Part shown: one piece after another, positions 18,932 to 46,962 of the stretch
How positions within the stretch are numbered: position 1 is the first letter of the stretch
Layout of the letters: each line of letters starts with the position of its first letter
DNA from: Candidatus Woesearchaeota archaeon
GTDB taxonomy: Archaea; Nanobdellota; Nanobdellia; Woesearchaeales; 21-14-0-10-32-9
Direction of reading: 5' to 3'
Assembly (NCBI GenBank): GCA_047602735.1
Contig: JBLKOK010000002.1
Coordinates: 20,280-84,279 of the forward strand
DNA length: 64,000 nucleotides
Program-made: the position numbers and the translations under genes
The notes under the pieces: generated by a model
The model's input: the letters and a program-made list of their open reading frames with translations, nothing else
The model's database searches: none
Told to the model about the DNA's origin: nothing

Positions 18932-18969
18932 GACAATTTATTTGTCGTCATAAAGATATATAAATATTA

Positions 18970-21291: not shown

Positions 21292-21324
21292 TTTTTTGTT
21301 TTACCTCCTAAAAAAAGTTTTTTT

Positions 21325-21552: not shown

Positions 21553-21622
21553 TTTTTATGTTCAGTTCGAATTTTTAATCCTAATATAGCTATTTAAAGT
21601 TTTCTATTAATTAGTAGTGTTT

Positions 21623-25707: not shown

Positions 25708-25905
25708 GTGTTAACGCGTAAAGAAATACAAGTTTTGGAATTTAGAAAAAAAAATATGACACAAGTAGAAATAGCTTCAAAACTAAATATTTCTCAAGCA
25801 GCAGTCTCAGGATTTGAGAGAAGCGCGTATAAAAAAATAAAGGATGCTCATAAAATAATAGAAGAGTCTGAAAGATTGGAGGTTGATATCCATGACAGAT
25901 ATTAA
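25708..25905 (+). CDS. small HTH DNA-binding protein, Tfx-like / sigma-70 region-4-like
   Basis: LTRKEIQVLEFRKKNMTQVEIASKLNISQAAVSGFERSAYKKIKDA matches the sigma70_r4/Tfx helix-turn-helix pattern. Its 3' end overlaps the next gene by 23 nt. Confidence 0.55.
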   Translation: MLTRKEIQVLEFRKKNMTQVEIASKLNISQAAVSGFERSAYKKIKDAHKIIEESERLEVDIHDRY

Positions 25906-27466
25906 ATCCAAACTAAACCAAATTCTCGATAAGAAGGTTAATCGTAAGAAATTCTTACAAATACTAGGACTTAGTGCAGCAGCAATACCATTGCTAAGTC
26001 CAAGCGTAGCAGCTAAATTCTTCCTACGACAAAGCAACGGCAACCTAATAGACATAGACGACTTAGATCCTAACGCATCAGCGCCAGCCGGTAGTGAAGG
26101 AGAAATACAATTCAAACAAGGAACAACGCTCGGTGCGAGTAATAATTTGTATTGGAATAATACTCAAAATAGATTGGGTGTTGGCACTAATAGTCCAGAT
26201 GAAACTTTGCACGTTGTTGGAAACACCGAGGTTGATGGTGATTTCGGAGTGACTGGAGATGCAGGCGTTATTGGTTTTGTTAGAGCAGACGATGGATTCC
26301 AAGTAGACGGAACCACAGTTATAGACAGCTCAAGAAACATAGTAAACGCAGGAACAGGAACGTTCTCAGGAACAGTAACAGCAGCAACACCAAGTTCCAC
26401 AAATCATCTGACCACAAAACAATACGTAGATGACGCAATAGTAAGTGCCGGAGGAGAAGCAGTCTGGGGAGGAATAACAGGAACACTTAGCAATCAAACA
26501 GACCTTCAAAACGCACTAAATTCCAAATTGAATTTGAGTGGCGGAACAATGACTGGAACCTTAATTACTCCTGCAAGTACCACTAGTGCTTCTTCAATTA
26601 GAATACCTCACGGCTCTGCTCCAAGCAGTCCTGTTAACGGAGATTTATGGACTACTACTAGTGCGCCGTTAATAAGATTAAACGGAACTACAAGAACAAT
26701 ATATCACACAGGTAACTTAGCAACAGTAGGTCAAGCAGAAGCAGAAGCAGGAACAGCAACAACAACAAGAGCTTGGACTGCTCAAAGAGTTAGACAAGCT
26801 ATTGAGGCCATTGTTCCAGATGTTACTGACGGTACTGATTTGAGTCTTGGAGTTAGTAGCGGAAGCGAGGTTAGAATAGATAGTAGCACAGGAACTAACG
26901 TTACCTTGCCTAATGCGTCAACAAGTAATGCTGGTTTAATAACAACAGAAGCACAAACCATAGCAGGAGTAAAAACATTCAGCTCAACAATAACAGGAAG
27001 TATATCTGGAAACGCAGGCACTGCCACCAACGCCAACCGACTGGTGGTACCTGATACCAGAGGCGCCAACGACCAGCCACAGGCCAAAGCAGGCAAAAGA
27101 ATAACTGCTGACTTCAAGTTCAACACTGCAGTAGGAAGCCCTCCTGTGACTGCCAGCGGAACATACTCGCATATCATCACTGTTGCTGGGTGGAACACAA
27201 ATGAAGCCAGTGGAGGCTGGCCTACACAGCTGTCAATTGGCGCAGCAGGAATAGCATATCGTCAGGCAACATCTGCAACTGCCTGGGGCGGGTGGAATGC
27301 CACAGTGAACACTGCTGGTAACCAGACCATTGGTGGCATCAAAACTTTTAGTAACGATTTGAATGTTAATGGTAAAACTACAAGCAATAATGGTTTTGAA
27401 ACAGGAGATTTTGAAATTGTTTATAATGAAGACACCGAAAGCTTAGATTTCAACTTTATAGGATAA
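25883..27466 (+). CDS. fibre-like secreted protein with a Tat-type (R-K variant) signal peptide and tail-fibre-like Gly/Thr-rich beta repeats
   Basis: N-region KVNRKKFLQILGLSAAAIPLLSPSVAAKF fits S/T-R-R-x-F-L-K with the second R replaced by K, then an h-region and an AxA site. It contains [11 protein letters not shown] and other tail-fibre-like motifs. Its stop is 2 nt from the next start. Confidence 0.5.
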   Translation: MISMTDIKSKLNQILDKKVNRKKFLQILGLSAAAIPLLSPSVAAKFFLRQSNGNLIDIDDLDPNASAPAGSEGEIQFKQGTTLGASNNLYWNNTQNRLGVGTNSPDETLHVVGNTEVDGDFGVTGDAGVIGFVRADDGFQVDGTTVIDSSRNIVNAGTGTFSGTVTAATPSSTNHLTTKQYVDDAIVSAGGEAVWGGITGTLSNQTDLQNALNSKLNLSGGTMTGTLITPASTTSASSIRIPHGSAPSSPVNGDLWTTTSAPLIRLNGTTRTIYHTGNLATVGQAEAEAGTATTTRAWTAQRVRQAIEAIVPDVTDGTDLSLGVSSGSEVRIDSSTGTNVTLPNASTSNAGLITTEAQTIAGVKTFSSTITGSISGNAGTATNANRLVVPDTRGANDQPQAKAGKRITADFKFNTAVGSPPVTASGTYSHIITVAGWNTNEASGGWPTQLSIGAAGIAYRQATSATAWGGWNATVNTAGNQTIGGIKTFSNDLNVNGKTTSNNGFETGDFEIVYNEDTESLDFNFIG

Positions 27467-27468: not shown

Positions 27469-30234
27469 ATGGCATTAATTGCATGGTGGAAACTTGATGG
27501 AAACGCAGAAGATATTATCGGAGGTAATGACGGTAATGCTGTAGGTACTACTGATTGGATTAATGGAAAGATAGGAGGTGCTGCGGAGTTTGGTCAGACA
27601 GGTTACATAGAGATTGGTAATTTGTCAAATTTAAATTTTCAGCCTGTAAATTCTTTTAGTATTGGTGGTTGGGTAAAAGTTACTGAGACGTTTCCAACTT
27701 GGCATAGTTCTCTTGGAAGGTGGTTGAATACGGTAACTACTTTTTTTGGTAGAGGTTCTACAGGGAGTTCTTTTGGTATTGGTATTTCTACTACTTGGAA
27801 CGATACTGGAGATCCTGAAATAGAACCAGAACCTACTAATTATCGTTTTTTATTTGGCTCTAGAGGAGTTAGTCAAATTTATATTACAGATAGTTATGAT
27901 TTTGAGTTGAATAAATGGTATCATTTATTTTTTGTTTATACTCCTGGAGTCCAATATGGTTATGTGAATGGTGAGCGAGTTATTACAAGAAATAATTCGG
28001 CAGGTATCGGAGGTACTTTTTCTGGAAGTTGGGGCGTTTTTGCTCCTAGAGCTGTTCCTGGAGGTAATGGACGTCATTCTGCAGGTGTTGCTGATGATTT
28101 AAGAATTTATAATCGTGCTTTGTCTATAAAAGAGATTAAAGAACTTTCAAGAGCTAAGGTTTTTCATACAAAACTTAATAATCCTAATTCAATAGATGAT
28201 GATAGTGGTAATGATGGCGAAATAACTAATAATGGAGCTGTTTTTTCTAGTGAATCTAAAATAGGTAGTGGTTCTTATGAGTTTGATAATAATAATATTC
28301 AAACAGATTGGGGTGAGAATTATACTGTTGATAATAATTTAACTCTTTCTTTGTGGGTTAAACCTTCAACGACATCAGGAAGTCAAATTTTTGCTTCTTT
28401 TGGAACAAATACAGACAATAGAAGAGCATATTTTTCAGTATATGGTGGAAATTGGGATATGGGCATTCAAGGAACTGCGTGGGGAGGAGGCAGTCAAGTT
28501 GCTAATACTGATTGGACTCATATAGCCATTGTATTTGGCGAAACATCAGTTAATATGTATACTAATACTATTCTGACTAGATCTATTTCGTATACTTCGT
28601 ATGATCTTTTAGCAAATCTTAGATTAGGTCAATATGGCAATGGTAGTTATCCTTTTTATGGAAATATACAAGATGTTAAAGTTTTTACACAAAGTTTGTC
28701 TTTAGCTGAAATAAATGAAATTTATTCTCAACGTGGCAGTATTGATAATAAAGGAAATTTATTTGCACAAGAACTTGCAGAGACTAGTCATAAACCTTTG
28801 ATTATGGATTATACTATTTGGCAAGACGGACAAACAGGTGCTCAAGGACCTTTTGGACAATATAGTTCTAGAAATTGGAGAACGATAGGAACTGATCCTT
28901 GGGGTAAAGAGACCGTTGTTTGGGAAGGAGAAAGCTTGGATGGTTCAACTGCAGGTACAGGTATTTATTTTTCGACTAGTAATCCTATTGATAATACTAA
29001 AATGTATAGATTAACATTTTGGGAGAGAAGAGTGACAAACTCTGATGCTACTTATGCCCGGTATTATTTTGGTCTTAATGGTTATGGCTCTACTAACGGA
29101 GTTTATAATAGAAGCACAGGTGCTTTAAGTACTAATCCTTATTTTTATAATACCTCTAACTTACCTACAAGTGCTCAACTTCCTGAAGGAGAATGGGTTT
29201 TATTTGTTGGTCATATTTGGCCTGCCGGAAGCGGTACTGGTTCTACTCATCCCGATAGTGGAAGATATACTTTGAATGGAAGACTAGGAAATATTTCAAG
29301 AGACTGGGTCTGGCACGAAACTAGTGATAGAGGAAGAGGTAGAACGCTAGCAATTTATCAGCCAAATTCAGGAGGTGTTATTCATCACAGCGTTTATCCT
29401 AGGATGGATGTTGTTGATGGTACCGAACCTAGTATCGCAGAATTACTTGCTGGTTTTGATTCAAACCACATAGATTATATTAGAGCTAAAGGAGGTACTA
29501 AATATATATCATTTGATATTAATTCTAAGCTAACTTATACAGGAGATATATCCGAAGTTGGTCCAACTCAAGGCCTCATTGGTTGGTGGCCTCTTAATGG
29601 AGATACCAATGATATGAGTGGAGAAGAAAATCATGGTATTAATAATAACGGAGTTGTTGTCCCTGGACTTAAACAACTAGCTTATGAATTTGATGGTGAT
29701 GGATGGATAGACTTAGGAGATAGTTTATATCTTCCTGATAATCACCCGTTTACCTTATCAGGATGGGTTAATTATAATAGTTTTTCAAATAGAGATATGA
29801 TGCTTAGTAGAAATGATGCTGTTAAAAGTGGTAGTCCTTATACTTGGCTGCTTGGTACAAGAGATGGGGATAGAATGTATGCTTATGATGGTAGTTCTTG
29901 GAGTCAAAGAATGTATTCTTTTAGTACAGGAACATGGTATCATTTAACTTTTAGATTTGATGGAACAACTATGCACTATTATGTTAACGGAGAAAGTATA
30001 GGAACAACTTCTTGGAGTTTTTCAGACAGCACCACTGGAAGAAACACCCAAATAGGAGGATATAGTGGAACTACAGGAGATATAGATGGTAAAACTTTTG
30101 ATATCAGATTTTATGATCGTGCTCTCTCACCTGAAGAAATCAAGATTCTTTATGATATTACAAAACCAGGCGGACCTCGTGTAAAAAAAACTAAGACTGG
30201 TGTTTATATTAAAGGAGAGTTTGTGGAAGATTAA
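27469..30234 (+). CDS. 921 aa protein with three LamG/concanavalin-A-like lectin domains and no signal peptide
   Basis: Three copies of the LamG signature: WKLDGNAEDIIGGNDGNAVGTTDWINGKIGGAAEFG...FSIGGWVKV, DSGNDGEITNNGAVFS...LTLSLWVKPS, and SGEENHGINNNGVVVPGLKQLAYEFDGDGWIDLG...FTLSGWVNY ... DIRFYDRALSPEEIKILY. Confidence 0.7.
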   Translation: MALIAWWKLDGNAEDIIGGNDGNAVGTTDWINGKIGGAAEFGQTGYIEIGNLSNLNFQPVNSFSIGGWVKVTETFPTWHSSLGRWLNTVTTFFGRGSTGSSFGIGISTTWNDTGDPEIEPEPTNYRFLFGSRGVSQIYITDSYDFELNKWYHLFFVYTPGVQYGYVNGERVITRNNSAGIGGTFSGSWGVFAPRAVPGGNGRHSAGVADDLRIYNRALSIKEIKELSRAKVFHTKLNNPNSIDDDSGNDGEITNNGAVFSSESKIGSGSYEFDNNNIQTDWGENYTVDNNLTLSLWVKPSTTSGSQIFASFGTNTDNRRAYFSVYGGNWDMGIQGTAWGGGSQVANTDWTHIAIVFGETSVNMYTNTILTRSISYTSYDLLANLRLGQYGNGSYPFYGNIQDVKVFTQSLSLAEINEIYSQRGSIDNKGNLFAQELAETSHKPLIMDYTIWQDGQTGAQGPFGQYSSRNWRTIGTDPWGKETVVWEGESLDGSTAGTGIYFSTSNPIDNTKMYRLTFWERRVTNSDATYARYYFGLNGYGSTNGVYNRSTGALSTNPYFYNTSNLPTSAQLPEGEWVLFVGHIWPAGSGTGSTHPDSGRYTLNGRLGNISRDWVWHETSDRGRGRTLAIYQPNSGGVIHHSVYPRMDVVDGTEPSIAELLAGFDSNHIDYIRAKGGTKYISFDINSKLTYTGDISEVGPTQGLIGWWPLNGDTNDMSGEENHGINNNGVVVPGLKQLAYEFDGDGWIDLGDSLYLPDNHPFTLSGWVNYNSFSNRDMMLSRNDAVKSGSPYTWLLGTRDGDRMYAYDGSSWSQRMYSFSTGTWYHLTFRFDGTTMHYYVNGESIGTTSWSFSDSTTGRNTQIGGYSGTTGDIDGKTFDIRFYDRALSPEEIKILYDITKPGGPRVKKTKTGVYIKGEFVED

Positions 30235-30264
30235 ATTTATTAAGTTTTGTTAATTCTTTTTTTT

Positions 30265-31344
30265 ATGAAGGTTTGTTTGGTTAGTATTGTTAAGGATGAG
30301 TCTCATGTTATTTTGAGGATGCTTGAAAGTGTTAGAAAGTATGTTGATGAGTATGTTATTGTTGATACTGGTTCTAGTGATGATACTATTAGTATTTGTG
30401 AGAATTATTTTAAGGAAGAAAAAGTTAAAGGCAAGGTTTTTAGTAGGCCTTGGAAGAATTTTGGTCATAATAAGGGGGAGGCTTTGGCTATTGCAAGAAA
30501 GCATAGTTCTTGTGATTATTTGATGATGATTGATGCAGATAATTTTATTGAGGGTTCTTTTAAGATACCTGATAGTATTGATAAGGATGGTTATTATGTT
30601 AAGCATAAGTATGGTGATGGAACTAATTTTTTTTGGAGGAAGCAGTTGTTTAAAAGAGTTAAGCCTTGGACTTATAAAGGTGTTTTGCATGAGTATCCTT
30701 TTCTTGAGGGTGATAACGATATAGGTTTTATTTACGGCGAATATTTTTTTACTGAGACTCATGAGGGTGCTAGGAATAAGGATCTTGTTAAGAAGTATGA
30801 GAGTGATATTAATGTTTTACTTGATGGTTTGAAAGATGAGCCTGATAATGCTAGGTATATGTTTTATTTAGGTCAAAGTTATATTTGTCTTGATAATTTT
30901 AAGGAAGGTGCTAAGTGGTATTTGAAGGCTGCTAAGAGTAGCTCTTGGGATGAGGAGGTTTGTGTTAGTTATTATAGGTGTGGTTTGGCTTATATGGAGC
31001 TTCGTGAGTTTAGTAAGGCTAAGAAGTGTTTGTATGAGGCATTTAAGGTTAGACCTTCTAGGCTTGAGTCTATGTATATTTTAATTAAGTATTATTATGA
31101 AAAGGGAGAGTTTGAGGAAGGTTATCAGGCAGGTCAGTTGATTAAGAGTTTTGAGGTTTCTGATGATACTTTGTTTGTTGAACAAGATGTTTATGAGTGG
31201 AAGATTTTTGATTTGCTTAGTCTTTGTAGTTATTATTCCGAGAGGTTTGATGAAGCTAGGAATTATTATGAGTTAATGATTAATATTCCAAGAGAAGAAA
31301 TGGATCGTTATAATAATAATAAACAGTTTTTTTATCAGAAATGA
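30265..31344 (+). CDS. family-2 glycosyltransferase with C-terminal TPR-like repeats
   Basis: N-terminal GT-A block VSIVKDESHVILRMLESV...YVIVDTGSSDDT...MIDADN (DxD motif), then a helical repeat region (YMFYLGQSYICLDNFKEGAKWYLKA...). The start was chosen at MKVCLVS (30265). Confidence 0.65.
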   Translation: MKVCLVSIVKDESHVILRMLESVRKYVDEYVIVDTGSSDDTISICENYFKEEKVKGKVFSRPWKNFGHNKGEALAIARKHSSCDYLMMIDADNFIEGSFKIPDSIDKDGYYVKHKYGDGTNFFWRKQLFKRVKPWTYKGVLHEYPFLEGDNDIGFIYGEYFFTETHEGARNKDLVKKYESDINVLLDGLKDEPDNARYMFYLGQSYICLDNFKEGAKWYLKAAKSSSWDEEVCVSYYRCGLAYMELREFSKAKKCLYEAFKVRPSRLESMYILIKYYYEKGEFEEGYQAGQLIKSFEVSDDTLFVEQDVYEWKIFDLLSLCSYYSERFDEARNYYELMINIPREEMDRYNNNKQFFYQK

Positions 31345-31946
31345 ATTCCTAATACTTCTGGGACTTCTATGTAGTCATATTTTTTTGCTAGTTCTTCGTA
31401 GGTATATCCGTCTGCTAGGTATCCTTGGTCTTGGTTCCATCCTCCTATTTCTTTTAAGTGTTTTTTTTTTATCATAAGTTGTAGTGTGTCTACGTTTTGA
31501 ACTTTTACAGGTATACCCTTTATTATCTGAGGCGGCAGTCCTAGGTGTTCTGGTAGGGGTCCTAGGTGTATTATTTTGCATATTGAAAACGCCGTTTTTT
31601 CATCTGTATTTTTTAGTGCGTTTAGCATTTTTTCTAGGTAGTGTGGGAATATTAAGTTGTCATCATCTAGAAATATTATGTAGTCTGCTTTTGCTTTTGT
31701 GAATGCGTGTTGTCTTGCTTTGTTTGCATAGTCTTGATAGTGTTTTTTTAAGTGTAAATATTTTATTTTTGGGTCTTTTTTTGATTTTACGTATTTTTTT
31801 ACGTTTTCTTCAAATCCGTCACTGCAAATTAGGTGTTCGTATTCTTGTATTGTTTGTGATTTTACGCTTCTTATACATCTCTCTATTATTTCTAAGGGTC
31901 TGTTCCATGTAGGTGTGATTATTGTTATTTTTGGTTTTATTGCCAT
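31335..31946 (-). CDS. family-2 glycosyltransferase
   Basis: ITIITPTWNRPLEIIERCIRSVKSQT...YIIFLDDDN (GT-A fold, DxD). The start was chosen at MAIKPK and overlaps the upstream GT stop by 10 nt. Confidence 0.65.
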   Translation of the reverse strand: MAIKPKITIITPTWNRPLEIIERCIRSVKSQTIQEYEHLICSDGFEENVKKYVKSKKDPKIKYLHLKKHYQDYANKARQHAFTKAKADYIIFLDDDNLIFPHYLEKMLNALKNTDEKTAFSICKIIHLGPLPEHLGLPPQIIKGIPVKVQNVDTLQLMIKKKHLKEIGGWNQDQGYLADGYTYEELAKKYDYIEVPEVLGIHF

Positions 31947-33172
31947 TGTGGTCCTGGAAGTATAGGTGTTTGTTTTTTTATTGCACAAAGGTCTACTTGT
32001 GTTATTAAGTAATCGTTTTCTTTATGCCAGTCTGTTGGATAAAATGTTTCGTTTCTCCATGATTGGAATTTTCCTTTAAATCCTATTTTTTCTGCAAAGA
32101 ATTTTTGGGTGTAGAATTTTGTGCTTTCTTCGTTCCAAAAGCTTTTGTTTAATGGGTTTGCAAATGCGTGTTTGCAGTCTGAGCTTACTACTTCTAAGAA
32201 TAGTAGTCCTCCGTGGTCTAGTATTCTCCATAGTTCTTGCATTGTTTTTATTGGGTCAGTGCATTTTTCTAGTATGTTATGTGCTTTTATTACCCCTACT
32301 GAGTTTGTTTTTATTTTTTTTAAGTCATTAATATTTATTTTTTCAAAGTCCATCCAGTCTTCTGAATCAACACTCATATCTATCAGTCTTAATTTTTTGT
32401 CTTGTGCCCATTTTACTGCTATTTTTCTGCTATAGTTAAAGTAGTTTGTTTGTACTATGTCTTGTACTTCATCATTATTTACTATGCTATGATTGTTATC
32501 GTGTACTCTGTATAAGTATAGTGGTTTTTTTATCCATTTAAATCCTTGTTCGCCGAATTCTAAGAAGAATTTGCACATTAATTCATGGTCGTCTCCGCTT
32601 GGAAGTTCTTCGTTGTGACCTCTTATTTGTTGGTATGATTTTTTTCTCCATGCTCTTACATGGTTTGGTGCCCACTCTATTCTCATGATAGTTGTTGCAT
32701 ATATTGGGAAGGCTATTGTTTCTAGTAATTCTTTATCTTGGTATTTGAATGGTTTTGTTTTCCATCCCCAGTATGAATCGTATGTTCTTGGTTTCCATGT
32801 ATCGTTAAAAAATTCTACTGTGTTGGAGTATGCGAAGTGGGTTTTTTTATCTTTGAATGCTTGAATTATTTCTTGTAGTGCGTTTGGTGTTAGCATGTCA
32901 TCTGCGTCTAATTCTACTATTATTTCTGATGTTGCTTTTAGGCTTAATTTTTTTTTAAGTCTCCCTATATTGTTGTCTTTTCCTATTTCAGTTAATATTT
33001 TTACTCGTTTATCTTTTGCTATTTCGTCAGATATTTTTCCGCCATTATTTAGAAGTATTAGCCATTCCCATTCTTGTATTGTTTGGTTTTTTAAAGAATC
33101 GTATGTTTGTTGAATATAAGGATTTGATTTGTAGTACACAGGACTTATTATAGATATTTTAGGTTTAATCAT
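31937..33172 (-). CDS. two-domain protein: N-terminal family-2 glycosyltransferase plus C-terminal SAM-methyltransferase-like domain
   Basis: ISIISPVYYKSNPYIQQTYDSLKNQT...VELDADDML (GT-A, DxD), followed by ...LDHGGLLFLEVVSSD..., which resembles a class-I methyltransferase core (weak). Confidence 0.55.
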   Translation of the reverse strand: MIKPKISIISPVYYKSNPYIQQTYDSLKNQTIQEWEWLILLNNGGKISDEIAKDKRVKILTEIGKDNNIGRLKKKLSLKATSEIIVELDADDMLTPNALQEIIQAFKDKKTHFAYSNTVEFFNDTWKPRTYDSYWGWKTKPFKYQDKELLETIAFPIYATTIMRIEWAPNHVRAWRKKSYQQIRGHNEELPSGDDHELMCKFFLEFGEQGFKWIKKPLYLYRVHDNNHSIVNNDEVQDIVQTNYFNYSRKIAVKWAQDKKLRLIDMSVDSEDWMDFEKININDLKKIKTNSVGVIKAHNILEKCTDPIKTMQELWRILDHGGLLFLEVVSSDCKHAFANPLNKSFWNEESTKFYTQKFFAEKIGFKGKFQSWRNETFYPTDWHKENDYLITQVDLCAIKKQTPILPGPQWQ

Positions 33173-33306
33173 TTATTTATTAAAAAAAAGATTATTATTT
33201 ATAGCTTTTGATTTGTGTAAAAAGCTATGTTTAAGCGTTGTTATTGTGAGAAAATTTATAAAAAAAACATTACTTAGGTTTAAAGTAATACTATTTAGTT
33301 TATAAA

Positions 33307-34788
33307 ATGGCGAAATTTAAAAGTAGTAAAGTTAAAGGAAGATTAGATGTTGAAGGTTCTGCTGAGTTTAAAAAATCTTTAAGTATAAAGGATGCTGAAG
33401 ATAGTGATGAAGCTACTACTAAAAAGTATGTTGATGATGAAATTTCTAATGTTAGTTCTACTGTAGGCCCTCAAGGACCTCAAGGACCAACTGGTTATAA
33501 AGGTAATCAAGGAAGCCAAGGAGCAGTAGGGCACCGAGGAAATCAAGGACCTGTTGGATATAAAGGTAATCAAGGGTCTAGTGGAGGTTCTGGTTCTCAA
33601 GGAAGCCAGGGACCTACAGGTAGTAGAGGTAGCCAAGGCGCTGCAAGTACCACCGCAGGACCTAGAGGACCACAAGGAGGTGGAGGACCGACAGGTTATG
33701 TTGGCGCTACAGGACCTGCAGGTTATGTTGGTAATGTTGGTCCAACTGGACCTGGAGGACCAAGAGGACCGCAAGGAAGCCAAGGCGCTGCAAGCACCAC
33801 CGCAGGACCAAGAGGACATACCGGTACAACTGGACCTGGGGGTCGTCAAGGAGCTGTTGGTCCTGGAGGTTATTCAGGAGCAGTTGGTCCTACTGGTAGT
33901 GGAGGACCAAGAGGACCACAAGGAGGACAAGGAGCAACCGGACACACAGGAAACAGAGGACCTGGAGGACCAGGAGGACCAAGAGGACCACAAGGAGGAC
34001 AAGGAGCAACCGGACACAGAGGACACACAGGAGGTGGAGGACCAGGAGGACCAAGAGGACCACAAGGAAGCCAAGGAGCAACAGGGTATGTAGGACCAGG
34101 AGGACCAGGCGGATACGCAGGACCAGGAGGACCAGGCGGATACGTAGGACCAGGAGGACCAGGCGGATACGTAGGACCAGGAGGACCAGGCGGATACGCA
34201 GGACCAGGAGGACCAGGCGGATACGCAGGACCACAAGGACCTCAAGGATATAGAGGAGCTCAAAGAAGAGGACCACAAGGATTTAGAGGACCTACAGGAC
34301 CTTTTTTATCTTCTAGGACTTTAAAGAAAAATATTAAGACTTTAGATGATCAGACAAAAAATCTTGAAAGAATTCAGCCAGTTAGGTTTAAGTGGAAAAA
34401 AGATAAAAAAGAGGATATTGGTCTTATTGCTGAAGAATTGAAAAAAGTTTATCCTGAGTTTGTTTATCATAATTTAAAAGGAGAAGTTGAAGGCATTCAT
34501 TATGGTAAGTTAAATTCTGTATTGATTAATATTTCTCAAAAGCAGCAAGAAAAAGTTAAAAAGATTTTAGATGATTTTTATTTAGCTATTTTTGATAGTG
34601 ACTTAGATAAAGGAAGAAATTTATTAGACTTATCCACTTATTGGAAAAGAAAAGATGTGCCTGAGGTTATTATTACGAGTGATAAGGGTTATTCTTGTAT
34701 TGGGTATATAAGTGAAGATGAAAAGAACATAATTATAGATGTAGAACATAATGGGAAGTATAAAGTTACTTTGATTAAAACGGCGTGA
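33307..34788 (+). CDS. collagen-like triple-helix repeat protein with C-terminal intramolecular-chaperone auto-processing (peptidase S74 / tail-fibre-type) domain
   Basis: About 270 aa of uninterrupted Gly-X-Y ([16 protein letters not shown]...[16 protein letters not shown]). Then [53 protein letters not shown] matches the endosialidase/tail-fibre chaperone consensus (SxRxLKxNI...L.PV.Y.yk......iGfIAqEv..v.Pe.V). There is no signal peptide. The N-terminus carries ATTKKYVDD. Confidence 0.75.
34093..34227. repeat. 5 x 27-bp tandem repeat (GGACCAGGAGGACCAGGCGGATACGYA) encoding GPGGPGGY[A/V]
   Basis: Five exact or near-exact units read directly from the sequence within the collagen gene. Confidence 0.85.
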
Positions 34789-34793
34789 ATAAG

Positions 34794-36260
34794 ATGGCAA
34801 AGCTTACTAATACAAAAATATTTGGAGACTTAACCGTAGTTGGAAAAGGAAAATTCAACAACACCATAAAAATAGGACCTCCAACACAAGACGACCATGC
34901 CACAACCAAACAATACGTAGATAATCAAATAAGCAACATAACATTAACACCCGGTCCTCAAGGACCTAGAGGACCACAAGGAAGTGTAGGTTCTGGGGGA
35001 CCTAGAGGACCACAAGGTATAACTGGGCCTAGAGGACCACAAGGAAGCCAAGGTAGTAGTGGAGTTGGAGGGAGTCAGGGTAGTACTGGCCCTACAGGTC
35101 CAACCGGAGTTGTTGGGCCTGGAGGTTATACTGGACGCACAGGTCCAACTGGACCTGGCGGTTATAGGGGAAACCAAGGACCAGGCGGATACAGAGGAAA
35201 CCAAGGACCACAAGGAGCAACCGGACACAGAGGACACACAGGAAGCGGAGGACCAGGCGGACCTGCGGGATATGTTGGTCCACAGGGTAGTCAAGGGCCT
35301 ACTGGTTATAGGGGAAACCAAGGACCAGGCGGATACAGAGGAGTACAAGGACCACAAGGAGCAACCGGACACAGAGGACACACAGGAAGCGGAGGACCAG
35401 GAGGACCAAGAGGACCACAAGGAGGACAAGGAGCAACCGGACACACAGGAAACAGAGGACCAGGAGGACCAGGAGGACCAAGAGGACCACAAGGAGGACA
35501 AGGACCTGTAGGATACACAGGAAACAGAGGACCAGGAGGACCAGGAGGACCAAGAGGACCACAAGGCGCAACCGGACGCAGAGGAAACCAAGGACCAGGC
35601 GGATACAGAGGAAACCAAGGACCAACCGGACGCAGAGGAAACCAAGGACCAACCGGACACAGAGGAAACCAAGGACCAACCGGACACAGAGGAAACCAAG
35701 GAGGCGGAGGACCAAGAGGACCACAAGGTCCTACTGGACCTGCAGGCGTTCGAGGCCACCAAGGTCATACAGGTCCTGCAAGGTCTTCATCTATTAGATA
35801 TAAAGAAAAATTAAGAGTGCTTGAAGATCAAACCAATAATTTAGATTTAATTAAACCTAGAAGTTTTAAATGGAAAGATAGTGATAAAAAAGATATTGGT
35901 CTTATTGCTGAAGAAATAGATAAATTATATCCTGAAGTAATTGTATATAATGAAAAAAATGAACCTGAGCGTATTTTTTATGAAAAATTAACTACTGTAT
36001 TATTAGATATTGCTAAAAGGCAAGAAAAATCTATTTTAGGTTTAGAAAATAAAACAAAAGTTAGTAGTTTTAGTTTAGATTTAGATGAAGGTTTAAATGT
36101 TTTTGAGCTGGATAACTATTGGGATTATGATACAGCTAATTTAAAGTTGTTTATTGAATCTAAAAATAGTGCATATGGAACGATTAATTCAAATAATACT
36201 TTTAGTATTATTGCTTCAAAGAAAGGAAAACACACTGTTGTTTTGATTAAAAATAGTTAG
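34794..36260 (+). CDS. collagen-like triple-helix repeat protein with C-terminal S74-type intramolecular-chaperone domain (paralogue 2)
   Basis: N-terminus [46 protein letters not shown], then ~280 aa of Gly-X-Y, then [51 protein letters not shown]. The start was chosen at MAKL (the track ORF begins 9 nt earlier at a GTG). Confidence 0.75.
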
Positions 36261-36268
36261 AATATAAA

Positions 36269-37771
36269 ATGGCGAAACTTACTAATACAAAAATATTTGG
36301 AGACTTAACCGTAGTTGGAAAAGGAAAATTCAACAACACCATAAAAATAGGACCTCCAACACAAGACGACCATGCCACAACCAAACAATACGTAGATGAT
36401 CAAATAAACAACATAACCTTAACACCCGGTCCTCAAGGTCATACTGGGCCTACTGGGCCAGTTGGAGATATAGGAAATACAGGAAGTACAGGCGCTGTAG
36501 GTTATACAGGTGTAACAGGACCTGTGGGAGATACGGGTAGTTCTGGTGGTGTTGGGAGTCAAGGACCTGCAGGAGCTACAGGACCTGCAGGACACAGAGG
36601 AGTACAAGGACCTCAAGGACCTGGAGGATATAGAGGAGTACAAGGCGGAGCTGGACCAAGAGGACCACAAGGAAGTCATAGTACTACTGCAGGGCCAAGG
36701 GGACCACAAGGAAGCCAAGGAGCAACCGGGTATACAGGTAATAGAGGAGTACAAGGACCAGCAGGACCAGCAGGGCCAAGAGGACCGCAGGGTTCTGCAA
36801 GTAGTGTGAGAGGACCACAAGGAGCAGCCAATACAACTACAGGACCAAGAGGACCACAAGGAGGACAAGGAGCAACCGGACGCAGAGGACACACAGGAGG
36901 CGGAGGACCAGGAGGACCAAGAGGACCACAAGGAAGCCAAGGAGCAACCGGACACACAGGAAACAGAGGACCAGGAGGACCAGGAGGACCAAGAGGACCA
37001 CAAGGAGGACAAGGAGCAACCGGACGCAGAGGACACACAGGAGGCGGAGGACCAAGAGGACCACAAGGAGGCGGAGGACCAAGAGGACCACAAGGAGGCG
37101 GAGGACCAAGAGGACCACAAGGAGGCGGAGGATCGAGAGGACCACAAGGAGGCGGAGGACCAAGAGGACCACAAGGACCAGGCGGACCTACTGGTTGGTC
37201 TGGTAATACTGGACCTGCAGGTCCTCTTGGAATTAGGGGTCATCAAGGACCTCAAGGATATGCGGATACAGGTTCTTTCTCTACTAAGAAATTAAAGTAT
37301 GATATTAAGGATTTAGAAGATCAAACCAGAAAAGTTAATAAATTAAGGCCTGTTAGTTATAGGTGGAAGAAAGATAATGTAAAAGATATTGGTCTTATTT
37401 CTCAAGAGCTTCATGAAATTTATCCGGAGTTTACAGGATTAGATGAGAATGGAGAAGCGGTTAATATTGATTATAGTAAGTTAGTTACTGTTTTATTTGA
37501 TGTTGCTAAGCGTCAACAAAAAAAGATTGATGATTTGGTTAATAAATTTGAGTTTAAATTTTTAAGAGTTGTTGCTTCCAAGGATAAGTGTGATTTAGTT
37601 GTTAGTCTTCCAGATTATTTTAAGTATTTAAATAAAAATAATAGTGTGTTGGTTCAGCCTATTAACATGTTTAGTTCTGGTTATGGAGTAATTAAAAGTA
37701 ATAGTTTAGAGTTGTATTTGGATAAGAAAGGAGAATATGATGTTTTAATTATGAGTGTTAGGACTGATTAA
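36269..37771 (+). CDS. collagen-like triple-helix repeat protein with C-terminal S74-type intramolecular-chaperone domain (paralogue 3)
   Basis: Same N-terminal 55 aa as paralogue 2, ~285 aa of Gly-X-Y including 5 x GGGPRGPQG, then [54 protein letters not shown]. Confidence 0.75.
37041..37175. repeat. 5 x 27-bp tandem repeat (GAGGCGGAGGACCAAGAGGACCACAAG) encoding GGGPRGPQG
   Basis: Read directly. The fourth copy has the GGATCGAGAGGA variant. Confidence 0.85.
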
Positions 37772-38885
37772 GTTGTTTGTATAAGCTTAGTATTATTATT
37801 GTTAGAACAATTATTATAGATACGAATAAGATTATTTGTGAATAATTCTTTGTTAAAGGTTGTTGTGTTTGTTGTTGACCTAATATATGTATGTTATTAT
37901 TTGTTATTATTGTGCGATATTGTTTTTGTGTTTGTATTCCTTCAAAGTTTAATTGTATTTCTAAATCGTAGTTTCCAGGTTCTAATCCTAAGGTATTTAG
38001 ATATATAGGAACTACTATGTTTTTATTTGGTTGTATTTGGATTTGTTGTGTTGTTTGTATATTTGTTTGTTTTATATTTGCAGTTATTTGTACGTCTAAA
38101 TTATTTGTCCATTCGTTTTTTAGTTTTAGGTCTATTTGCGCTATTTCTCCTAATCTAAATGGATAAGTAGTTAGTGATGTTATGTTTATTGTTGGTTTTC
38201 CTACGAGTATAGTTTTGTTTTTTTCTAGTAATTCTTGGTCGTATTTTATTTGTGCTTGTATTGTTTTTGTTCCTATTTGTGTTGGTGTCCAGTTATAGTT
38301 TATGTTTATTGTTTCTAGTGATTGAATTGTTTTAGTTTGTTGAATTGTTTCTTGGTTTATTTTTATGGTTGATGTTAGTGTTGTTTGTGTTAGTCCTATA
38401 TTTGTTGTTTTTAGTGTTATTATTCCTTTTTTGTTTGGTTCAAAGTTCGAGTTTAGTATTTCAAATTCTAATAATGGTTCTTGTACCGGATTTATTATTA
38501 TTAAGTCATGTGTTAGGCTTATTTGTGCTGCTATTTGTGATTGTGTTTGAGTTATTTTTGATATTGTTATAGGTATTTGGTTTCTTCCAGGATTTAATTT
38601 TTCTCTTGGTATGTTTGTTGTTATTTGTATTATTTCGTGTTGTGTTTGGTTTGTGAATTCTATTTGTGATTGGCTTAGTGTTATGTATTGTGATAATTCG
38701 TTTGGTATTTTTATTGTTGCTATAAAGTCTTGGTTTAGATTATTTATTATTCTTAAGTTATATGTTTGTGATAGTTCCAGTGTTTCTGTTTTTGCAGGCG
38801 CTATACCTAATGCATGTATTTGAGGTATTATCAACGTTATTAATAATATTGTTAGTATTATTTTTTTCACTGTGCTATACCCCAT
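37758..38885 (-). CDS. secreted beta-rich protein with signal peptide and C-terminal TM anchor; paralogue of 19451..20587
   Basis: Signal [18 protein letters not shown] and C-terminal [19 protein letters not shown]. It shares the IAPAK...[13 protein letters not shown] pattern with the 378 aa protein at 19.5 kb. Gln/Thr-rich. Confidence 0.4.
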
Positions 38886-41250: not shown

Positions 41251-41664
41251 TTAATTTTTAGAATATTTTTCTAATTGTTCTATGAGGTTAGGTATTTCTA
41301 TAATTGCTTGTTTTACTGTTTCTTTTTCTATTTCTTCACCATAATAATTTATTCCGTTTCTAATTTTTCTATATCTGTTAAATTTATTAAATAAATATGT
41401 TTCTTTTAAAATATCTCTTAAGAAAAATCCCATTGATTCATGATCTAAGAATTTATATCCGTTTAAATAACCTATCGCTTCACAATGCTGTCTTAAACCT
41501 TCATATAATTCTCTAAATATTGATTTAGCAGTTTTATTAGAAAAAGGTATTATTTTTGCTGTCTGAATTGCTTGATTTGATTATTTTAATATATTTAAGG
41601 CTCTATTTTTATTAATAGTTACGTTTTTTACTTTCCCTTTTTCTAAACTTTGTTGAAAATTCAT
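41251..41664 (-). pseudogene. HEPN-like (NTase substrate-binding subunit) gene interrupted by an in-frame TAA at codon 28
   Basis: An ATG at 41664..41662 overlaps the TGA of the upstream nucleotidyltransferase (ATGA coupling). Translation reads MNFQQSLEKGKVKNVTINKNRALNILK-stop-SNQAIQTAKII...KIRNGINYYGEEIEKETVKQAIIEIPNLIEQLEKYSKN. The stop is at 41583..41581. The track shows only the last 60 codons. Confidence 0.45.
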
Positions 41665-42191
41665 AATATTGATAATTCACCACTAAGAACTATACCATTA
41701 CAAATATTATTTACTAAATAAGTATTTGATTTTTTTAGTTTATCCCATGATGAATTATTATAAATATGCAAACTTACTTTTCTATTTAATACTTGTTCAT
41801 ACTTGTCCAGTGCAAAAATTTTTTTTATGTCAGATATTATACATATATCTATATCACTATCTTTATAATTGGTAGCTGTCGAGTAACTTCCAAACAAAAC
41901 TATTGTTGGATAATCATATTTTTGTTCTAAATTTTCTATTAGTTTTGATTTTCTTATTTTTTCTAAGTTATAGTAAAGTTTTAGATTTAGTGTTTTTTTT
42001 GAGTTTGTTAATTGATAAAAAGAATATATTCTGTCTTTTTCAAGAGTTAAATATTTTTCTTTTACCAGCATATTTAAGTGTTGTCTTGTTGTTGTATGAT
42101 TAGTTTTTATTAATCTTGAAAGTTCTCTTATACTAAATTTTTTGTTAGGATCTTCGAAGAATGATTTTAATATGTTTAATTTTTTTTCCAT
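41661..42191 (-). CDS. minimal nucleotidyltransferase (MNT) with N-terminal winged-helix domain; cognate of the HEPN-like gene
   Basis: NTase motif IVLFGSYSTATNYKDSDIDICII (GS...DxD) and an N-terminal wHTH (SIRELSRLIKTNHTTTRQHLNMLVKEKYLT). Confidence 0.7.
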   Translation of the reverse strand: MEKKLNILKSFFEDPNKKFSIRELSRLIKTNHTTTRQHLNMLVKEKYLTLEKDRIYSFYQLTNSKKTLNLKLYYNLEKIRKSKLIENLEQKYDYPTIVLFGSYSTATNYKDSDIDICIISDIKKIFALDKYEQVLNRKVSLHIYNNSSWDKLKKSNTYLVNNICNGIVLSGELSIL

Positions 42192-42280
42192 TTGGAAATA
42201 TAAATTTCCAATTGTTTATAAAAGTTTCCATTTTTTATTTGTTTGAAGAATTTTTATATATAATAGTTAGTTTCTTGTTT

Positions 42281-43753
42281 TTTATGGATGAGATTTCAAC
42301 GCTTGTTTTAGAGACTTTGAATTTGGATAAGCAAGTTATTATTTTTGTTAATAGTAAAAGAGGTGCTGAGAGTCAGGCCGAAAAGGTTTCTAAGATAATA
42401 AAGAGTAGTAGTGATGAATTAATTAACATAAGTAATTCTGCTTTGTCTGCTTTGACTAATCCTACTCGTCAGTGTAAGCGGCTTGCGATGACTTTAAAAA
42501 AAGGTGTTGCATTTCATCATTCAGGTCTTAGTAGTAAGCAAAGAGATTTGGTTGAAGATAATTTTAAGCAAGGTAAAATAAAAGTTATTTGTGCAACACC
42601 AACTCTTGCAGCAGGTGTTGATCTTCCAGCGTTTAGAGTTATTATTCGTGATGTTAAAAGATATACTGGTTTTGGTATGAGTTTTATTCCCGTTCTTGAA
42701 TATGAACAACAAGCTGGTAGAGCTGGTCGTCCTAGTTATGATAATGAAGGTCAAGCAGTATTAATTGCTAAAGATCCTATTGAAAGAGAGGAGCTTTGGA
42801 GTCGTTATGTTAACGGTAAGCCTGAGAATATTTATAGTAAGCTTGCTGTTGAGCCTGTTCTTAGAATTTATGTTTTGAGTCTTGTTAGTAGTGGTTTTGT
42901 TAGAAGCTTTGAAGATTTACTTGATTTTATGAGTAATACTTTTTATGCTCATCAGTATGGCGATATGGTTAAGTTGAAGATGATTTTGTCTAAGATTGTT
43001 CGTATGCTTGTTGATTGGAGTTTTTTGGAAGCTGATGAATTTAATCTTAGTGCTACTGTTTTAGGTAGGCGTATTAGTGAGCTTTATCTTGATCCTTATA
43101 CTGCTAATTATTTGCTTGAGAATTTTGATTCTGATTTTGAGGATTTTGGTGTTTTGCAGCTTATTAGTTATACGCTTGAGATGCGTCCGCTTATTCGTAC
43201 TAAGAAGGCTGATGAGCAAATTATTTTTGATCGTTTGATTAATTCTGAGTTGCTTGTTGATGAGCCCGATAGTTATAGTGATGAGTTCGAGGAGTTTTTG
43301 AATAGTGTTAAGACTGCTGTTGTTTTAGAGGATTGGATGAATGAAGTGCACGAGGATATTTTGTATGAGAAGTACGGGGTTACTCCTGGCGAGCTTAATG
43401 CTAAGCTTGAGAGAGGTAATTGGCTTTTATATAGTTTGTATGAGCTTTTAAAAATTAGAGGTTATAAGAACATAGGTGGACTATTGAGAGTTCAGACTAG
43501 GCTTAAGTTTGGTGTTAAAGAAGAGCTTTTACCTCTTTTAAGGCTTAAGGGTATTGGTCGTGTTAGAGCTAGGAAGTTGTTTGTTAATAAAGTTAAAGAT
43601 CTTGGTGATGTTAAAAAGGTGGATGTTACTACGCTTACTCAGATTTTGGGTCCTAGTATGGCTAAGAATGTTAAAGAACAAGTTGGTATAAAAGTTGAGG
43701 TTGTTAAGCAAAATAAACGTAAGGGCCAAATTAATCTTAATGATTTTACTTAA
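42281..43753 (+). CDS. Hel308/Ski2-like DNA helicase, C-terminal half only (RecA2, winged helix, ratchet, HhH); the N-terminal ATPase domain is absent here
   Basis: Helicase motifs IV-VI (VIIFVNSKR, ATPTLAAGVDLPA, QQAGRAGRP), then a Sec63/ratchet-like region and a C-terminal HhH (LLRLKGIGRVRARKL). Neither a Walker A nor a DEAH box is present. The start was chosen at MDEIST. Confidence 0.65.
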   Translation, partial: FMDEISTLVLETLNLDKQVIIFVNSKRGAESQAEKVSKIIKSSSDELINISNSALSALTNPTRQCKRLAMTLKKGVAFHHSGLSSKQRDLVEDNFKQGKIKVICATPTLAAGVDLPAFRVIIRDVKRYTGFGMSFIPVLEYEQQAGRAGRPSYDNEGQAVLIAKDPIEREELWSRYVNGKPENIYSKLAVEPVLRIYVLSLVSSGFVRSFEDLLDFMSNTFYAHQYGDMVKLKMILSKIVRMLVDWSFLEADEFNLSATVLGRRISELYLDPYTANYLLENFDSDFEDFGVLQLISYTLEMRPLIRTKKADEQIIFDRLINSELLVDEPDSYSDEFEEFLNSVKTAVVLEDWMNEVHEDILYEKYGVTPGELNAKLERGNWLLYSLYELLKIRGYKNIGGLLRVQTRLKFGVKEELLPLLRLKGIGRVRARKLFVNKVKDLGDVKKVDVTTLTQILGPSMAKNVKEQVGIKVEVVKQNKRKGQINLNDFT

Positions 43754-46182: not shown

Positions 46183-46962
46183 ATGAATGTAGATTTAAAA
46201 AAAAGTCTTGGATCAGTTAAGAATAATTTGTTTGGCAAGGGTTTTTTTTCTTCAAATTTCAAAAATAGGATTGTTAGTAAATTAAAAAAAGGAGTTATAA
46301 CTTTTACATCCATAGTTGCTTTGACAACAAGTCTTAATTTAGAAGCTAAAGGTAATTTTTCAGATACGCTAAGAGAGCTTAAAAATATAAGCTTACAAAT
46401 TAGTTCAAATCCTCATTTATCTGAGGAGGAAAAAGATATTTTAAATAATAGAGTTGCAAATAAAACTGTTGAATTAAGTGAGAGAATTTTGAGTGAAATT
46501 AATGAATTGATAGTTGCTAAAGATTATGATAAAGCGTTAAATGATGCTGTTTTGTGGTATAAATTAGTTTCAGTATATGAAGATACGCCTTTAAAGAAAA
46601 GTATTGAAAGAATTATTTATGATATTAAAGATGTTAAATCAAGCACAAATAATGTTACTGGCAAAGAGATTAGTAAGTTAAGTTTCAATGATCTCAAGAG
46701 ATTAGATGCGTTTCAAAGAATGGACTTGATTAAGTTAATTAGTAATAATTATGATTTAACTAAAGAGTCTGAAGTTGTTAATTATTTAGCTAAGATATAT
46801 ATTTCCGGTTATCCTTTAATTGATGAGTTAGAAGAAGGAAGGTTTGTAAATATGACTTCTCATAATGTTAGGATTAGATTTAAGATAAATAACGGTACGA
46901 TTATAGGAGTTATAAATTTATCAAGGATTAATCCACAAGAATTTTATTTTAAAATAGATTGA
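46183..46962 (+). CDS. hypothetical protein (tandem paralogue A)
   Basis: Shares N-terminal (KGFFSSNFKNRIVSKLKKGVITFTSIVAL) and C-terminal (NYLAKIYISG...IIGVINL) blocks with 47008..47772. Confidence 0.3.
   Translation: MNVDLKKSLGSVKNNLFGKGFFSSNFKNRIVSKLKKGVITFTSIVALTTSLNLEAKGNFSDTLRELKNISLQISSNPHLSEEEKDILNNRVANKTVELSERILSEINELIVAKDYDKALNDAVLWYKLVSVYEDTPLKKSIERIIYDIKDVKSSTNNVTGKEISKLSFNDLKRLDAFQRMDLIKLISNNYDLTKESEVVNYLAKIYISGYPLIDELEEGRFVNMTSHNVRIRFKINNGTIIGVINLSRINPQEFYFKID

Follow-up and report, generated by a model that had tools for sequence, protein, structure and literature searches.

The pairing of a collagen-like shaft with a C-terminal intramolecular chaperone of the peptidase S74 family is an established phage tail-fibre design and is not new in itself, and S74-bearing fibres have been described in the literature for phages, extracellular contractile injection systems (eCIS) and polinton-like viruses. 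The subject here is a set of three tandem genes of this general type, designated col1, col2 and col3, located on a stretch of 64,000 nucleotides (positions 20,280 to 84,279 of contig JBLKOK010000002.1; henceforth the window) which is chromosomal DNA of a metagenome-assembled genome (MAG) of Woesearchaeota, a DPANN lineage. On balance, col1–col3 are probably best understood as a chromosomal archaeal operon for phage-derived collagen-like fibre subunits that are made as self-processing precursors.

In overall build, the side tail fibres EPclA to EPclD of lambdoid and enterohaemorrhagic Escherichia coli (EHEC) prophages (PMC3368898) and their S74-bearing relatives P0052 and P0082 come close to the three proteins in that both groups lack a signal peptide and combine a collagen-like shaft of comparable size, trimeric in the prophage fibres and predicted to be so in col1–col3, with a C-terminal module for trimerisation. 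P0052 and P0082, both annotated in E. coli as 'prophage tail fiber N-terminal domain-containing protein', combine the Pfam domains Collagen and Peptidase_S74 within about 495 amino acids (aa). However, the E. coli proteins are encoded in prophages, carry the virion-attachment domain PF08400, place about 45 aa of non-collagen sequence between collagen and cleavage serine and end with S74, whereas col1–col3 are encoded on an archaeal chromosome, carry a different N-terminal module of 53 aa, have their collagen abutting the serine and continue after S74 with a predicted beta-sandwich.

The S74 domains of the phage K1F endosialidase, of T5-like L-shaped tail fibres (8hqz) and of T4-like gp37 (6f45) share with col1–col3 the Pfam family, the Ser-x4-Lys start and the DIGLIAxE/YPE core. 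Cleavage has been shown for the K1F endosialidase and for the L-shaped and gp37-type domains, and for col1–col3 it is predicted. In these phage proteins the clients are beta-helical or beta-structured tips and S74 comes last, whereas in col1–col3 the client appears to be collagen and an extension follows. In this last respect col1–col3 are more like the intramolecular chaperone auto-processing (ICA) domain of MYRF (7dc3), which is a weak match to the profile of their C-terminal region and is an S74-type domain with more polypeptide after it; cleavage of MYRF separates an N-terminal trimer from the C-terminal part. MYRF differs in being a eukaryotic membrane-bound transcription factor that has no collagen, and a transmembrane segment takes the place of the beta-sandwich.

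Collagen proteins outside the S74 family offer further points of comparison. BclA of the Bacillus exosporium is also a signal-less, Thr-rich collagen filament with a small N-terminal domain, and it is glycosylated by enzymes encoded beside its gene, including those of rhamnose-pathway genes, to which the genes for family-2 glycosyltransferases (GT2) at the present locus and rmlC at a second locus (see below) may be compared; it differs by a retained C1q/TNF-like C-terminal trimerisation domain, by the lack of S74 and by assembly inside the mother cell. The C-propeptides of procollagen are likewise C-terminal, removable domains for trimerisation and chain selection that nucleate folding in the C-to-N direction, and the A, B and C chains of C1q are likewise encoded by three adjacent paralogous genes with collagen regions of equal length. 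Neither is homologous to col1–col3, and animal propeptides are cut by separate proteases whereas autocatalysis is predicted here. A survey counts collagen-like domains in archaea generally and does not mention S74 or endosialidase (PMC11923368), and within the literature collection searched no paper combined 'collagen-like' with DPANN, in agreement with a preliminary description of this DNA, made from the sequence alone, which had called the family previously undescribed.

Architecture of the three collagen genes

The features of the locus are the following (coordinates in the window, strand, description).

33173–33306, no strand: AT-rich divergent intergenic region of 134 nt between the GT2-methyltransferase gene (−) and col1 (+), presumed promoter
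33307–34788, +: col1 (A-type chain), open reading frame (ORF) of 493 aa, Pfam Collagen and Peptidase_S74
33307–33465, +: col1 N-terminal domain, aa 1–53, with ATTKKYVDD (sequence alignment; PHROG tail-fibre profiles reach over the pre-collagen segment)
33466–34305, +: col1 collagen domain, aa 54–333 (280 aa), with breaks STTA (twice) and RR; net charge +17, zero acidic residues
34309–34572, +: col1 S74/intramolecular chaperone domain, aa 335–422; PF13884 matches aa 335–387, profile positions 1–58 of 58 (also from PDB alignments)
34309–34311 and 34324–34326, +: predicted nucleophile Ser335 and predicted base Lys340 of col1 (sequence alignment)
34573–34785, +: col1 extension, aa 423–493; AlphaFold2 predicted local distance difference test (pLDDT) 88–96 over model residues 101–166, strands from residue 97
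34794–36260, +: col2 (B-type chain), ORF of 488 aa from ATG, Pfam Collagen and Peptidase_S74
34794–34952, +: col2 N-terminal domain, aa 1–53, 96% identical to the col3 domain at the protein level
34953–35780, +: col2 collagen domain, aa 54–329 (276 aa), 92 unbroken Gly-X-Y triplets; net charge +24
35787–36050, +: col2 S74 domain, aa 332–419, with predicted Ser332 (35787–35789) and Lys337 (35802–35804) (Pfam, alignment)
36051–36257, +: col2 extension, aa 420–488 (aligned with the other extensions)
36269–37771, +: col3 (C-type chain), ORF of 500 aa, Pfam Collagen and Peptidase_S74
36269–36427, +: col3 N-terminal domain, aa 1–53 (sequence alignment)
36428–37264, +: col3 collagen domain, aa 54–332 (279 aa), with one STTA break and an irregular stretch of 14 residues; net charge +19
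37280–37543, +: col3 S74 domain, aa 338–425, with predicted Ser338 (37280–37282) and Lys343 (37295–37297) (Pfam, alignment)
37544–37768, +: col3 extension, aa 426–500; AlphaFold2 pLDDT 72–91 in blocks 101–170, topology as in col1

As had been noted in the preliminary description, three adjacent plus-strand genes share one layout of N-terminal domain, collagen and S74. All three products match Collagen (PF01391; E = 3.6e-14, 2.5e-25 and 7.2e-19 for col1, col2 and col3, respectively, each above the curated cut-off of 27.2 bits) as well as Peptidase_S74 (PF13884; 52.1, 32.5 and 47.6 bits, curated cut-off 22 bits), and a six-frame scan of the window disclosed no further collagen or S74 ORF. The supposed affinity to phage tail fibres is likewise supported, both by matches to dozens of PHROG tail-fibre families with E-values down to 6.7e-49 and by S74 matches in phage long-tail-fibre genes. 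The lengths first given, 493, 489 and 500 aa, are right for col1 and col3, and col2 comprises 488 aa from its ATG; this start yields MAKLTNTK, identical to the start of col3, and an alternative in-frame GTG lies 9 nt upstream at 34785 and would give 491 aa.

Because the genes are co-directional and separated by gaps of only 5 nt (col1/col2) and 8 nt (col2/col3), they probably form one co-transcribed operon, the 3′ end of which overlaps a convergent gene (37758–38885) by 14 nt. The promoter and terminator scan used sigma-70 models, which are uninformative for an archaeon, archaeal promoters being outside its scope. The G + C content at third codon positions (GC3) of col1–col3 is 0.156–0.182 compared to a window background of 0.181, and the choice of synonymous codons for Gly, Pro, Arg and Gln agrees with that of the other window genes. 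While the host-like codon usage claimed at first is thus evident, the accompanying claim of long residence does not follow from it, since the genes of a virus infecting this host would show the same usage; the orthologous three-gene locus on a second archaeal contig described below is better evidence of residence than codon usage.

No N- or C-terminal hydrophobic segment that could serve as signal peptide or membrane anchor is present in any of the three proteins, the lack of a signal peptide having been stated from the outset, while many neighbouring proteins have an N-terminal segment of this kind. Accordingly, col1, col2 and col3 all lack the signal peptide and envelope anchor of secreted or anchored collagen adhesins of the Scl type. 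Each of them does have the long Pro-rich (Gly-X-Y)n tract matching PF01391 that is expected of a prokaryotic collagen-like protein, with S74 adjacent.

The collagen domains comprise 90, 92 and 87 Gly-X-Y triplets in col1, col2 and col3, respectively, with Pro in the X position of about 45% of triplets and mostly Q, T, R or G in the Y position. There are 19–23 Thr but only 0–2 acidic residues per domain, and the net charge amounts to +17 to +24 per chain. With a rise of 0.286 nm per residue in collagen, a rod of about 80 nm is predicted. Of the uninterrupted 270–285 collagen residues initially reported, the length holds (276–280 aa) and the continuity holds for col2 only; the four-residue break STTA is seen three times, twice in col1 and once in col3. 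At the DNA level, a 72-nt unit that lies in col1 at 33901–34082 is common to all three genes. In addition, each gene has tandem arrays of its own: a 27-nt unit repeated 5.6 times in col1 (34092–34241), 54/81-nt units in col2 (35427–35739) and a 27-nt unit repeated 10.6 times in col3 (36904–37188).

The N-terminal domain ends in the consensus ATTK[KQ]YVD[DN]. For aa 1–53 of col1–col3 no Pfam family was found, so that the proteins are without a recognisable virion-attachment domain, and a pattern and tblastn scan of IMG/VR returned no relative of this domain. At the DNA level, col2 and col3 share 97% identity over their first 165 nt. The same module as that preceding the collagen is also found in a neighbouring gene, p330 (24529–25521, −), whose 330-aa product has a Sec-type signal peptide and three repeats of about 80 aa, each closing in ATK/RDYVD, and matches PHROG tail-fibre families with E = 2e-14.

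The predicted self-processing module and its extension

In all three proteins the collagen is followed by an S74 domain of about 88 aa, which covers positions 1–58 (col1), 1–56 (col2) and 3–56 (col3) of the 58 positions of the PF13884 profile. The Pfam match opens with a serine at profile position 1, and the Ser-x4-Lys dyad proposed beforehand is present not only in col1–col3 but in six of six members of the family, including the three proteins of the second locus (L240). The motifs quoted earlier for the N- and C-terminal regions hold approximately, col2 having ATTKQYVDN and SSIRYKEKL instead. At the sequence level, the profile of the C-terminal region aligns the dyad with SDRRIK of 6f45, a phage long-tail-fibre chain, and with the corresponding residues of 8hqz, an L-shaped tail-fibre chain. 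In isolated phages, tblastn matches fall into genes for distal subunits of long tail fibres and cover query residues 1–86 or 1–94 only. In the AlphaFold monomer models of col1 and col3 the first 37 residues, including the dyad, have a pLDDT below 50, the S74 part being modelled with low confidence, and fold searches with these models recovered no solved chaperone-domain structure.

S74 domains cleave themselves after trimerisation (oligomerisation) of the domain upstream (PMC12220804). The S74 domain of col1–col3 sits directly C-terminal to a presumably trimeric fibrous domain, namely the collagen, the last Gly-X-Y triplet being separated from the cleavage serine by a linker of just 1–5 residues. 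Because of this short distance, the collagen helix itself would be the sole possible client of the chaperone. In contrast, all other collagen-plus-S74 proteins that were examined have a non-collagen spacer before the serine, which spans about 40–45 residues in P0025, P0080, P0052 and P0082 and considerably more in a number of others. The architecture of collagen plus S74 is known, for instance, from a viral protein of 171 triplets (L098–L100) and from the E. coli prophage tail fibres P0052, P0063 and P0082, and a simple count of triplets assigns it to 12 of the 252 S74 ORFs in the fetched loci.

Contrary to the expectation that the proteins end in S74 after a C-terminal part of about 110 aa, this part measures 157–163 aa and consists of S74 (about 88 aa) and an extension of about 70 aa. 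The extension (69–75 residues) is predicted by the AlphaFold models of col1 and col3 to form a six- or seven-strand beta-sandwich following the long S74 helix. It is the most divergent part of the proteins, with 20–31% identity between most pairs, and yet the extensions of col1 and col3, at about 20% identity, have equal predicted topology.

When 1.84 billion representative proteins were searched exhaustively by HMMER with a profile of S74 plus extension, 86,189 S74 proteins were found at E ≤ 0.001. Among the best 150 of these, only in P0003 and P0001 does the match run through the extension, while the remaining matches end by about profile position 122 of 167, usually at about 98–100, near the end of the protein. 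A hidden Markov model (HMM) of the extension by itself had no match at E ≤ 10 in the 239 S74 loci, none of them covering the extension, that the C-terminal profile had retrieved from GTDB genomes, IMG/VR and JGI metagenomes, and 50,697 phage records had no match to the extension either. A long match at the Saccharibacteria locus L063 was discarded as extension homology, the extension-only HMM being negative there. The S74 proteins of bacteria of the Candidate Phyla Radiation (CPR; L051, L061 and L063, on Parcubacteria and Saccharibacteria MAG contigs) have tails of 151–194 aa after DIGLI that are not homologous to the archaeal extension. In structure searches by Foldseek the best matches stayed below the significance threshold both for the PDB (E = 0.028) and for BFVD (E = 2.9e-3). 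The weak fold neighbours are enriched in C-terminal tips of tailspikes, of R2 pyocin and AP22 tail fibres and in H-type lectins, which is a hint toward a tip- or lectin-like fold in the models and not a finding.

These neighbours, together with the fact that the extension is predicted to be a well-folded beta-sandwich of about 70 aa and diverges fastest, as receptor-binding tips usually do, could also be accommodated by a different course of events, in which S74 acts as a trimeriser without C-terminal release, or the cut part stays bound, so that the beta-sandwich becomes a distal receptor-binding knob and the 53-aa domain an anchor. MYRF, where further sequence follows the S74/ICA domain and whose chain 7dc3 is amongst the matches, could be cited as a precedent. 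However, the strict retention of the dyad in all six proteins suggests selection for cleavage, and a retained knob is regarded as the less probable course.

A second archaeal locus and matched collagen lengths

Searches with full-length col3 as query retrieved P0003 (E = 1e-78) and P0004 (E = 2e-68), followed at a distance by the next match with 6e-44. Both proteins are encoded on L240, a 12.4-kb ENA contig, which harbours three tandem genes for Collagen plus S74 proteins of 403, 401 and 407 aa (collagen span at 1375–4350). On one side of this operon lies a gene for a dTDP-4-dehydrorhamnose 3,5-epimerase (rmlC), and on the other genes for a proteasome beta subunit, aCPSF1 (856 bits, cut-off 580) and PGK. 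Since the archaeal proteasome beta subunit, aCPSF1 and PGK flank the operon, L240 is archaeal and non-viral, and its neighbourhood is unlike that of the window.

The order of the genes is kept between the two genomes: an A-type N-terminus comes first and two of the B/C type follow. N-terminal domains of the window and L240 are 57% identical for the A type and 57–60% for the B/C type, compared to only about 40% between A type and B/C type, and for the non-repetitive N- and C-terminal domains as a whole identities range from 38 to 60%. The N-terminal domain has exactly 53 aa in each of the six proteins, all of which carry the dyad and the extension. Within L240 the N-terminal domains of chains B and C are 87% identical, and chains A and B share an S74 domain with 77% identity and an identical C-terminal tail. 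From these sequence comparisons, and from the nearly identical N-termini of col2 and col3 and the shared 72-nt unit, segments appear to be homogenised within each genome in a manner resembling gene conversion.

Beyond the window and L240, the complete C-terminal module was found in the databases searched only in the fragment P0001, which is close to the C chain of L240. This apparent rarity is probably biased, as collagen-repeat genes are likely to be under-represented in metagenome catalogues because short-read assemblies break inside the repeats. In two Logan short-read contigs of the same organism (L241 and L243; positions 1–624) the assembly ends inside col3 and leaves a C-terminal fragment of 207 aa, and this fragment is not among the S74 matches of the HMMER search. 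When the col1 C-terminus was used as query in a word-indexed search for homologues, two matches only were obtained, and it took the full-length col3 query to find L240. Exact look-ups of col1, col3 and the phosphoenolpyruvate (PEP) synthase in the contig index gave no match, which in the case of col3 is explained by contigs ending inside the gene. The junction between col3 and its neighbour, on the other hand, recurs in contigs from several sequencing runs. The contigs L241–L243 stem from SRR32456880, SRR32456828 and SRR32456881. The closest relative of the SMC protein of the window (L244, 83% identity) has no synteny upstream of SMC within the readable 10 kb.

The collagen domains measure 280, 276 and 279 aa in the window and 185, 187 and 186 aa in L240, so that the lengths differ by at most 4 residues within a genome and by about 93 residues (about 31 triplets) between genomes. 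The predicted fibril length would accordingly be about 80 nm for the window organism and about 53 nm for that of L240. As each window gene has tandem arrays of its own, collagen length evidently changes by gain and loss of repeats in each gene separately, as far as can be judged from the sequences. The matched lengths would fit either one shared helix, i.e. a heterotrimer, or three homotrimeric fibres that need equal reach.

The presence of three different chain genes side by side, in the same order in both genomes and with collagen of matched length, is reminiscent of C1q, and an A-B-C heterotrimeric collagen, in which the divergent S74 and beta-sandwich pro-domains select and register the chains, would explain why the A-type gene is followed by two of the B/C type in both genomes and why lengths are equal within a genome despite independent arrays and a shift of about 93 residues between genomes. 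Also the probable co-transcription, with gaps of 5 and 8 nt, and the placement of the extension, with 20–31% identity between the window paralogues, exactly where chain-selection domains are found, would be in favour of such an assembly. However, the interruptions of the helix are out of register irrespective of whether they are counted from the N- or the C-terminus, as col1 and col3 differ and col2 has none, and this is unlike C1q. The 77% identical S74 domains and the identical tail of the L240 A and B chains argue against strict discrimination between chains, gene conversion would also keep lengths similar, and to our knowledge all characterised S74 domains are homotrimers. A heterotrimer is therefore possible but tentative. 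Less probable again is the combined scenario of a natural prokaryotic heterotrimeric collagen with self-cutting pro-domains which forms a uniform, glycosylated surface fibril of about 80 nm contacting the host and is possibly exported in folded form via a signal-bearing partner such as p527 (see below).

Genomic context and proposed fibre assembly

That the host is an archaeon, as had been proposed from the composition of the DNA, is confirmed by the SMC protein of the window, which is 100% identical to 'MAG: chromosome segregation protein SMC [Candidatus Woesearchaeota archaeon]', with the next matches in Woesearchaeota and Nanoarchaeota, and by genes for an archaeal signal peptidase I (TIGR02228), NMD3 and a Hel308-type helicase. 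Further genes of the window code for TatC, PEP synthase, GAPDH, a P-type ATPase, a thymidine kinase and three tRNAs.

Upstream of col1, three glycosyltransferase genes with a GC3 of 0.26–0.28 stand between the gene for a LamG protein and the collagen operon.

30247–31344, +: glycosyltransferase with GT2 and tetratricopeptide repeats (GT2-TPR; Pfam family 2)
31335–31988, −: family-2 glycosyltransferase (Pfam)
31937–33172, −: GT2-methyltransferase (Pfam)

The LamG protein (27469–30234, +; 921 aa) lacks a signal peptide and carries three LamG/concanavalin-like domains (Pfam, E = 3e-52), and its gene starts 3 nt past the stop codon of p527 (25883–27466, +). The 527-aa product of the latter begins with NRKKFLQILGLSAAAIPLLSPSVAA, a twin-arginine-like signal with RK in place of RR, and contains a module of the ATKxYVD type as in the collagen N-termini as well as a BppL_N match; the GC3 of p527 is 0.295 compared to the background of 0.18. 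A tatC gene (23612–24319) lies 1.5 kb away, and p527 and TatC might be considered a candidate export route for pre-folded fibre proteins. Downstream of the operon there are two genes for secreted proteins.

Some further observations concern the surroundings. The genes at 19451–20587 (−) and 37758–38885 (−) encode proteins of like build, with a signal peptide, a body rich in Q, T, N and I and a C-terminal transmembrane segment, and have no family match. The block at 13266–23122 comprises secreted or membrane proteins throughout, plus one protein with a signal-peptidase domain. The GAPDH gene (58225–59214, −) encodes a type I, bacterial-type enzyme (TIGR01534, 464 bits) in an archaeal genome, and this gene also lies beside SMC in L244. 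The Hel308-type helicase ORF (42161–43753, +) covers only model positions from about 231 to 715 of profiles of about 700–740 residues, and its N-terminal half is apparently either lacking or located at a different place; upstream of the ORF, on the opposite strand, lies a gene for a MntA-like nucleotidyltransferase (41661–42191). The genes at 46183–46962 and 47008–47772 (+) are tandem paralogues whose products (259 and 254 aa) resemble each other at the N-terminus and have no NCBIfam match.

In the mechanism proposed for col1–col3, the C-terminal part of about 160 aa, i.e. S74 plus the family-specific beta-sandwich, would trimerise in the cytoplasm and set the register of the chains, from which a triple helix of 276–280 residues would fold zipper-like in the C-to-N direction. 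Collagen does fold from a C-terminal nucleus (PMC11923368). The Ser/Lys dyad would then cut at Ser335, Ser332 or Ser338 and release a pro-domain of about 18 kDa, and the mature fibre would be a trimer of chains of about 331–337 aa, each consisting of the small N-terminal domain and a bare, strongly cationic rod of about 80 nm. The rod would probably be O-glycosylated on its numerous Thr residues in Y positions by the adjacent glycosyltransferases, and would probably be presented on the cell exterior, serving this DPANN-type archaeon as a fibril for attachment.

Glycosylation of the fibres is suggested by the GT2 genes adjoining the operon in the window and by rmlC adjoining it in L240, by the 19–23 Thr per collagen domain and by the literature, in which Thr-rich prokaryotic collagens are linked with glycosylation (PMC11923368); the three GT2 genes are thus candidates for the enzymes involved. 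A role at the surface and in attachment is suggested by the surrounding block of secreted and fibre-like proteins and by the generally episymbiotic life of DPANN archaea.

A different origin and destination would be implied if col1–col3 encoded fibres for the tail or capsid of a virus infecting this archaeon, whether left in a degraded provirus or belonging to virions encoded elsewhere. This would account for the lack of signal peptides, as for virion parts, for the strong tail-fibre PHROG matches, for the matches of the neighbouring p330, p527 and LamG proteins to tail and virion PHROGs, and for the closest S74 domains of the viral collection (44–47% identity) being about as near as those of cellular genomes (up to 49%). 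However, among 45 window ORFs there was no match in Pfam, NCBIfam or PHROG to capsid, portal, terminase, tail tube, baseplate, integrase or replication proteins, and the annotated L240 genes likewise included no viral structural, integrase or replication match, so that in neither case do the genes lie beside structural genes in a viral or proviral genome. No tRNA-derived att-like repeats were found in the window, for which reason, too, a provirus was rejected as the principal interpretation. In both genomes the flanks consist of housekeeping or secreted-protein genes in different contexts, p330 and p527 carry signal peptides and are therefore exported by the cell, and neither the N-terminal domain in IMG/VR nor the extension in the phage records has a relative (see above). 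Taken together, a viral role of the fibres appears unlikely. Assembly artefacts or decaying, functionless pseudogenes of a repetitive region are highly improbable, for although collagen repeats do break short-read assemblies, as L241 and L243 illustrate, there are three intact frames of about 1.5 kb each with host codon usage, N- and C-terminal domains conserved with L240 at 38–60% and retained catalytic residues.

Several points also weigh against self-processing cellular fibres displayed on the surface. As col1, col2 and col3 lack both signal peptide and anchor, an extracellular site would need a separate export route, for which joint export with p527, the neighbour that does carry a signal, is speculative; moreover, the lack of a signal peptide fits assembly in the cytoplasm and is what virion components made in this way normally show. 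The dyad is placed by alignment, in a region of the monomer models with pLDDT below 50. The net charge of the rod is not conserved (+17 to +24 in the window compared to −2 to −16 in L240), and a polycationic rod was dropped as a functional clue, the L240 orthologues being neutral to acidic. Finally, conservation has been traced at two genomic loci only.

With respect to the S74 family, it is the combination that is new: three genes kept together stably on the chromosome of DPANN-type archaea, collagen fused directly to the cleavage site, a domain after S74 which is essentially unique among about 86,000 S74 proteins (best 150 compared), and collagen lengths that co-vary among three genes. The direct fusion to the cleavage site points to S74 as a domain that nucleates a triple helix and can then be removed. 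If the chains do form a heterotrimer, the C-terminal module would in addition be a compact, self-removing registration tag for defined recombinant collagens. As to method, the ending of short-read assemblies inside collagen repeats means that genes of this kind are probably under-counted in metagenomic catalogues. In another DPANN system, cryo-electron tomography has visualised phage-fibre-like 'antennae' of unassigned identity on the host cell (PMC11329633), and if the col1–col3 fibres are indeed located on the cell surface, they would be candidate molecules with which genome-reduced episymbiotic archaea touch their hosts.

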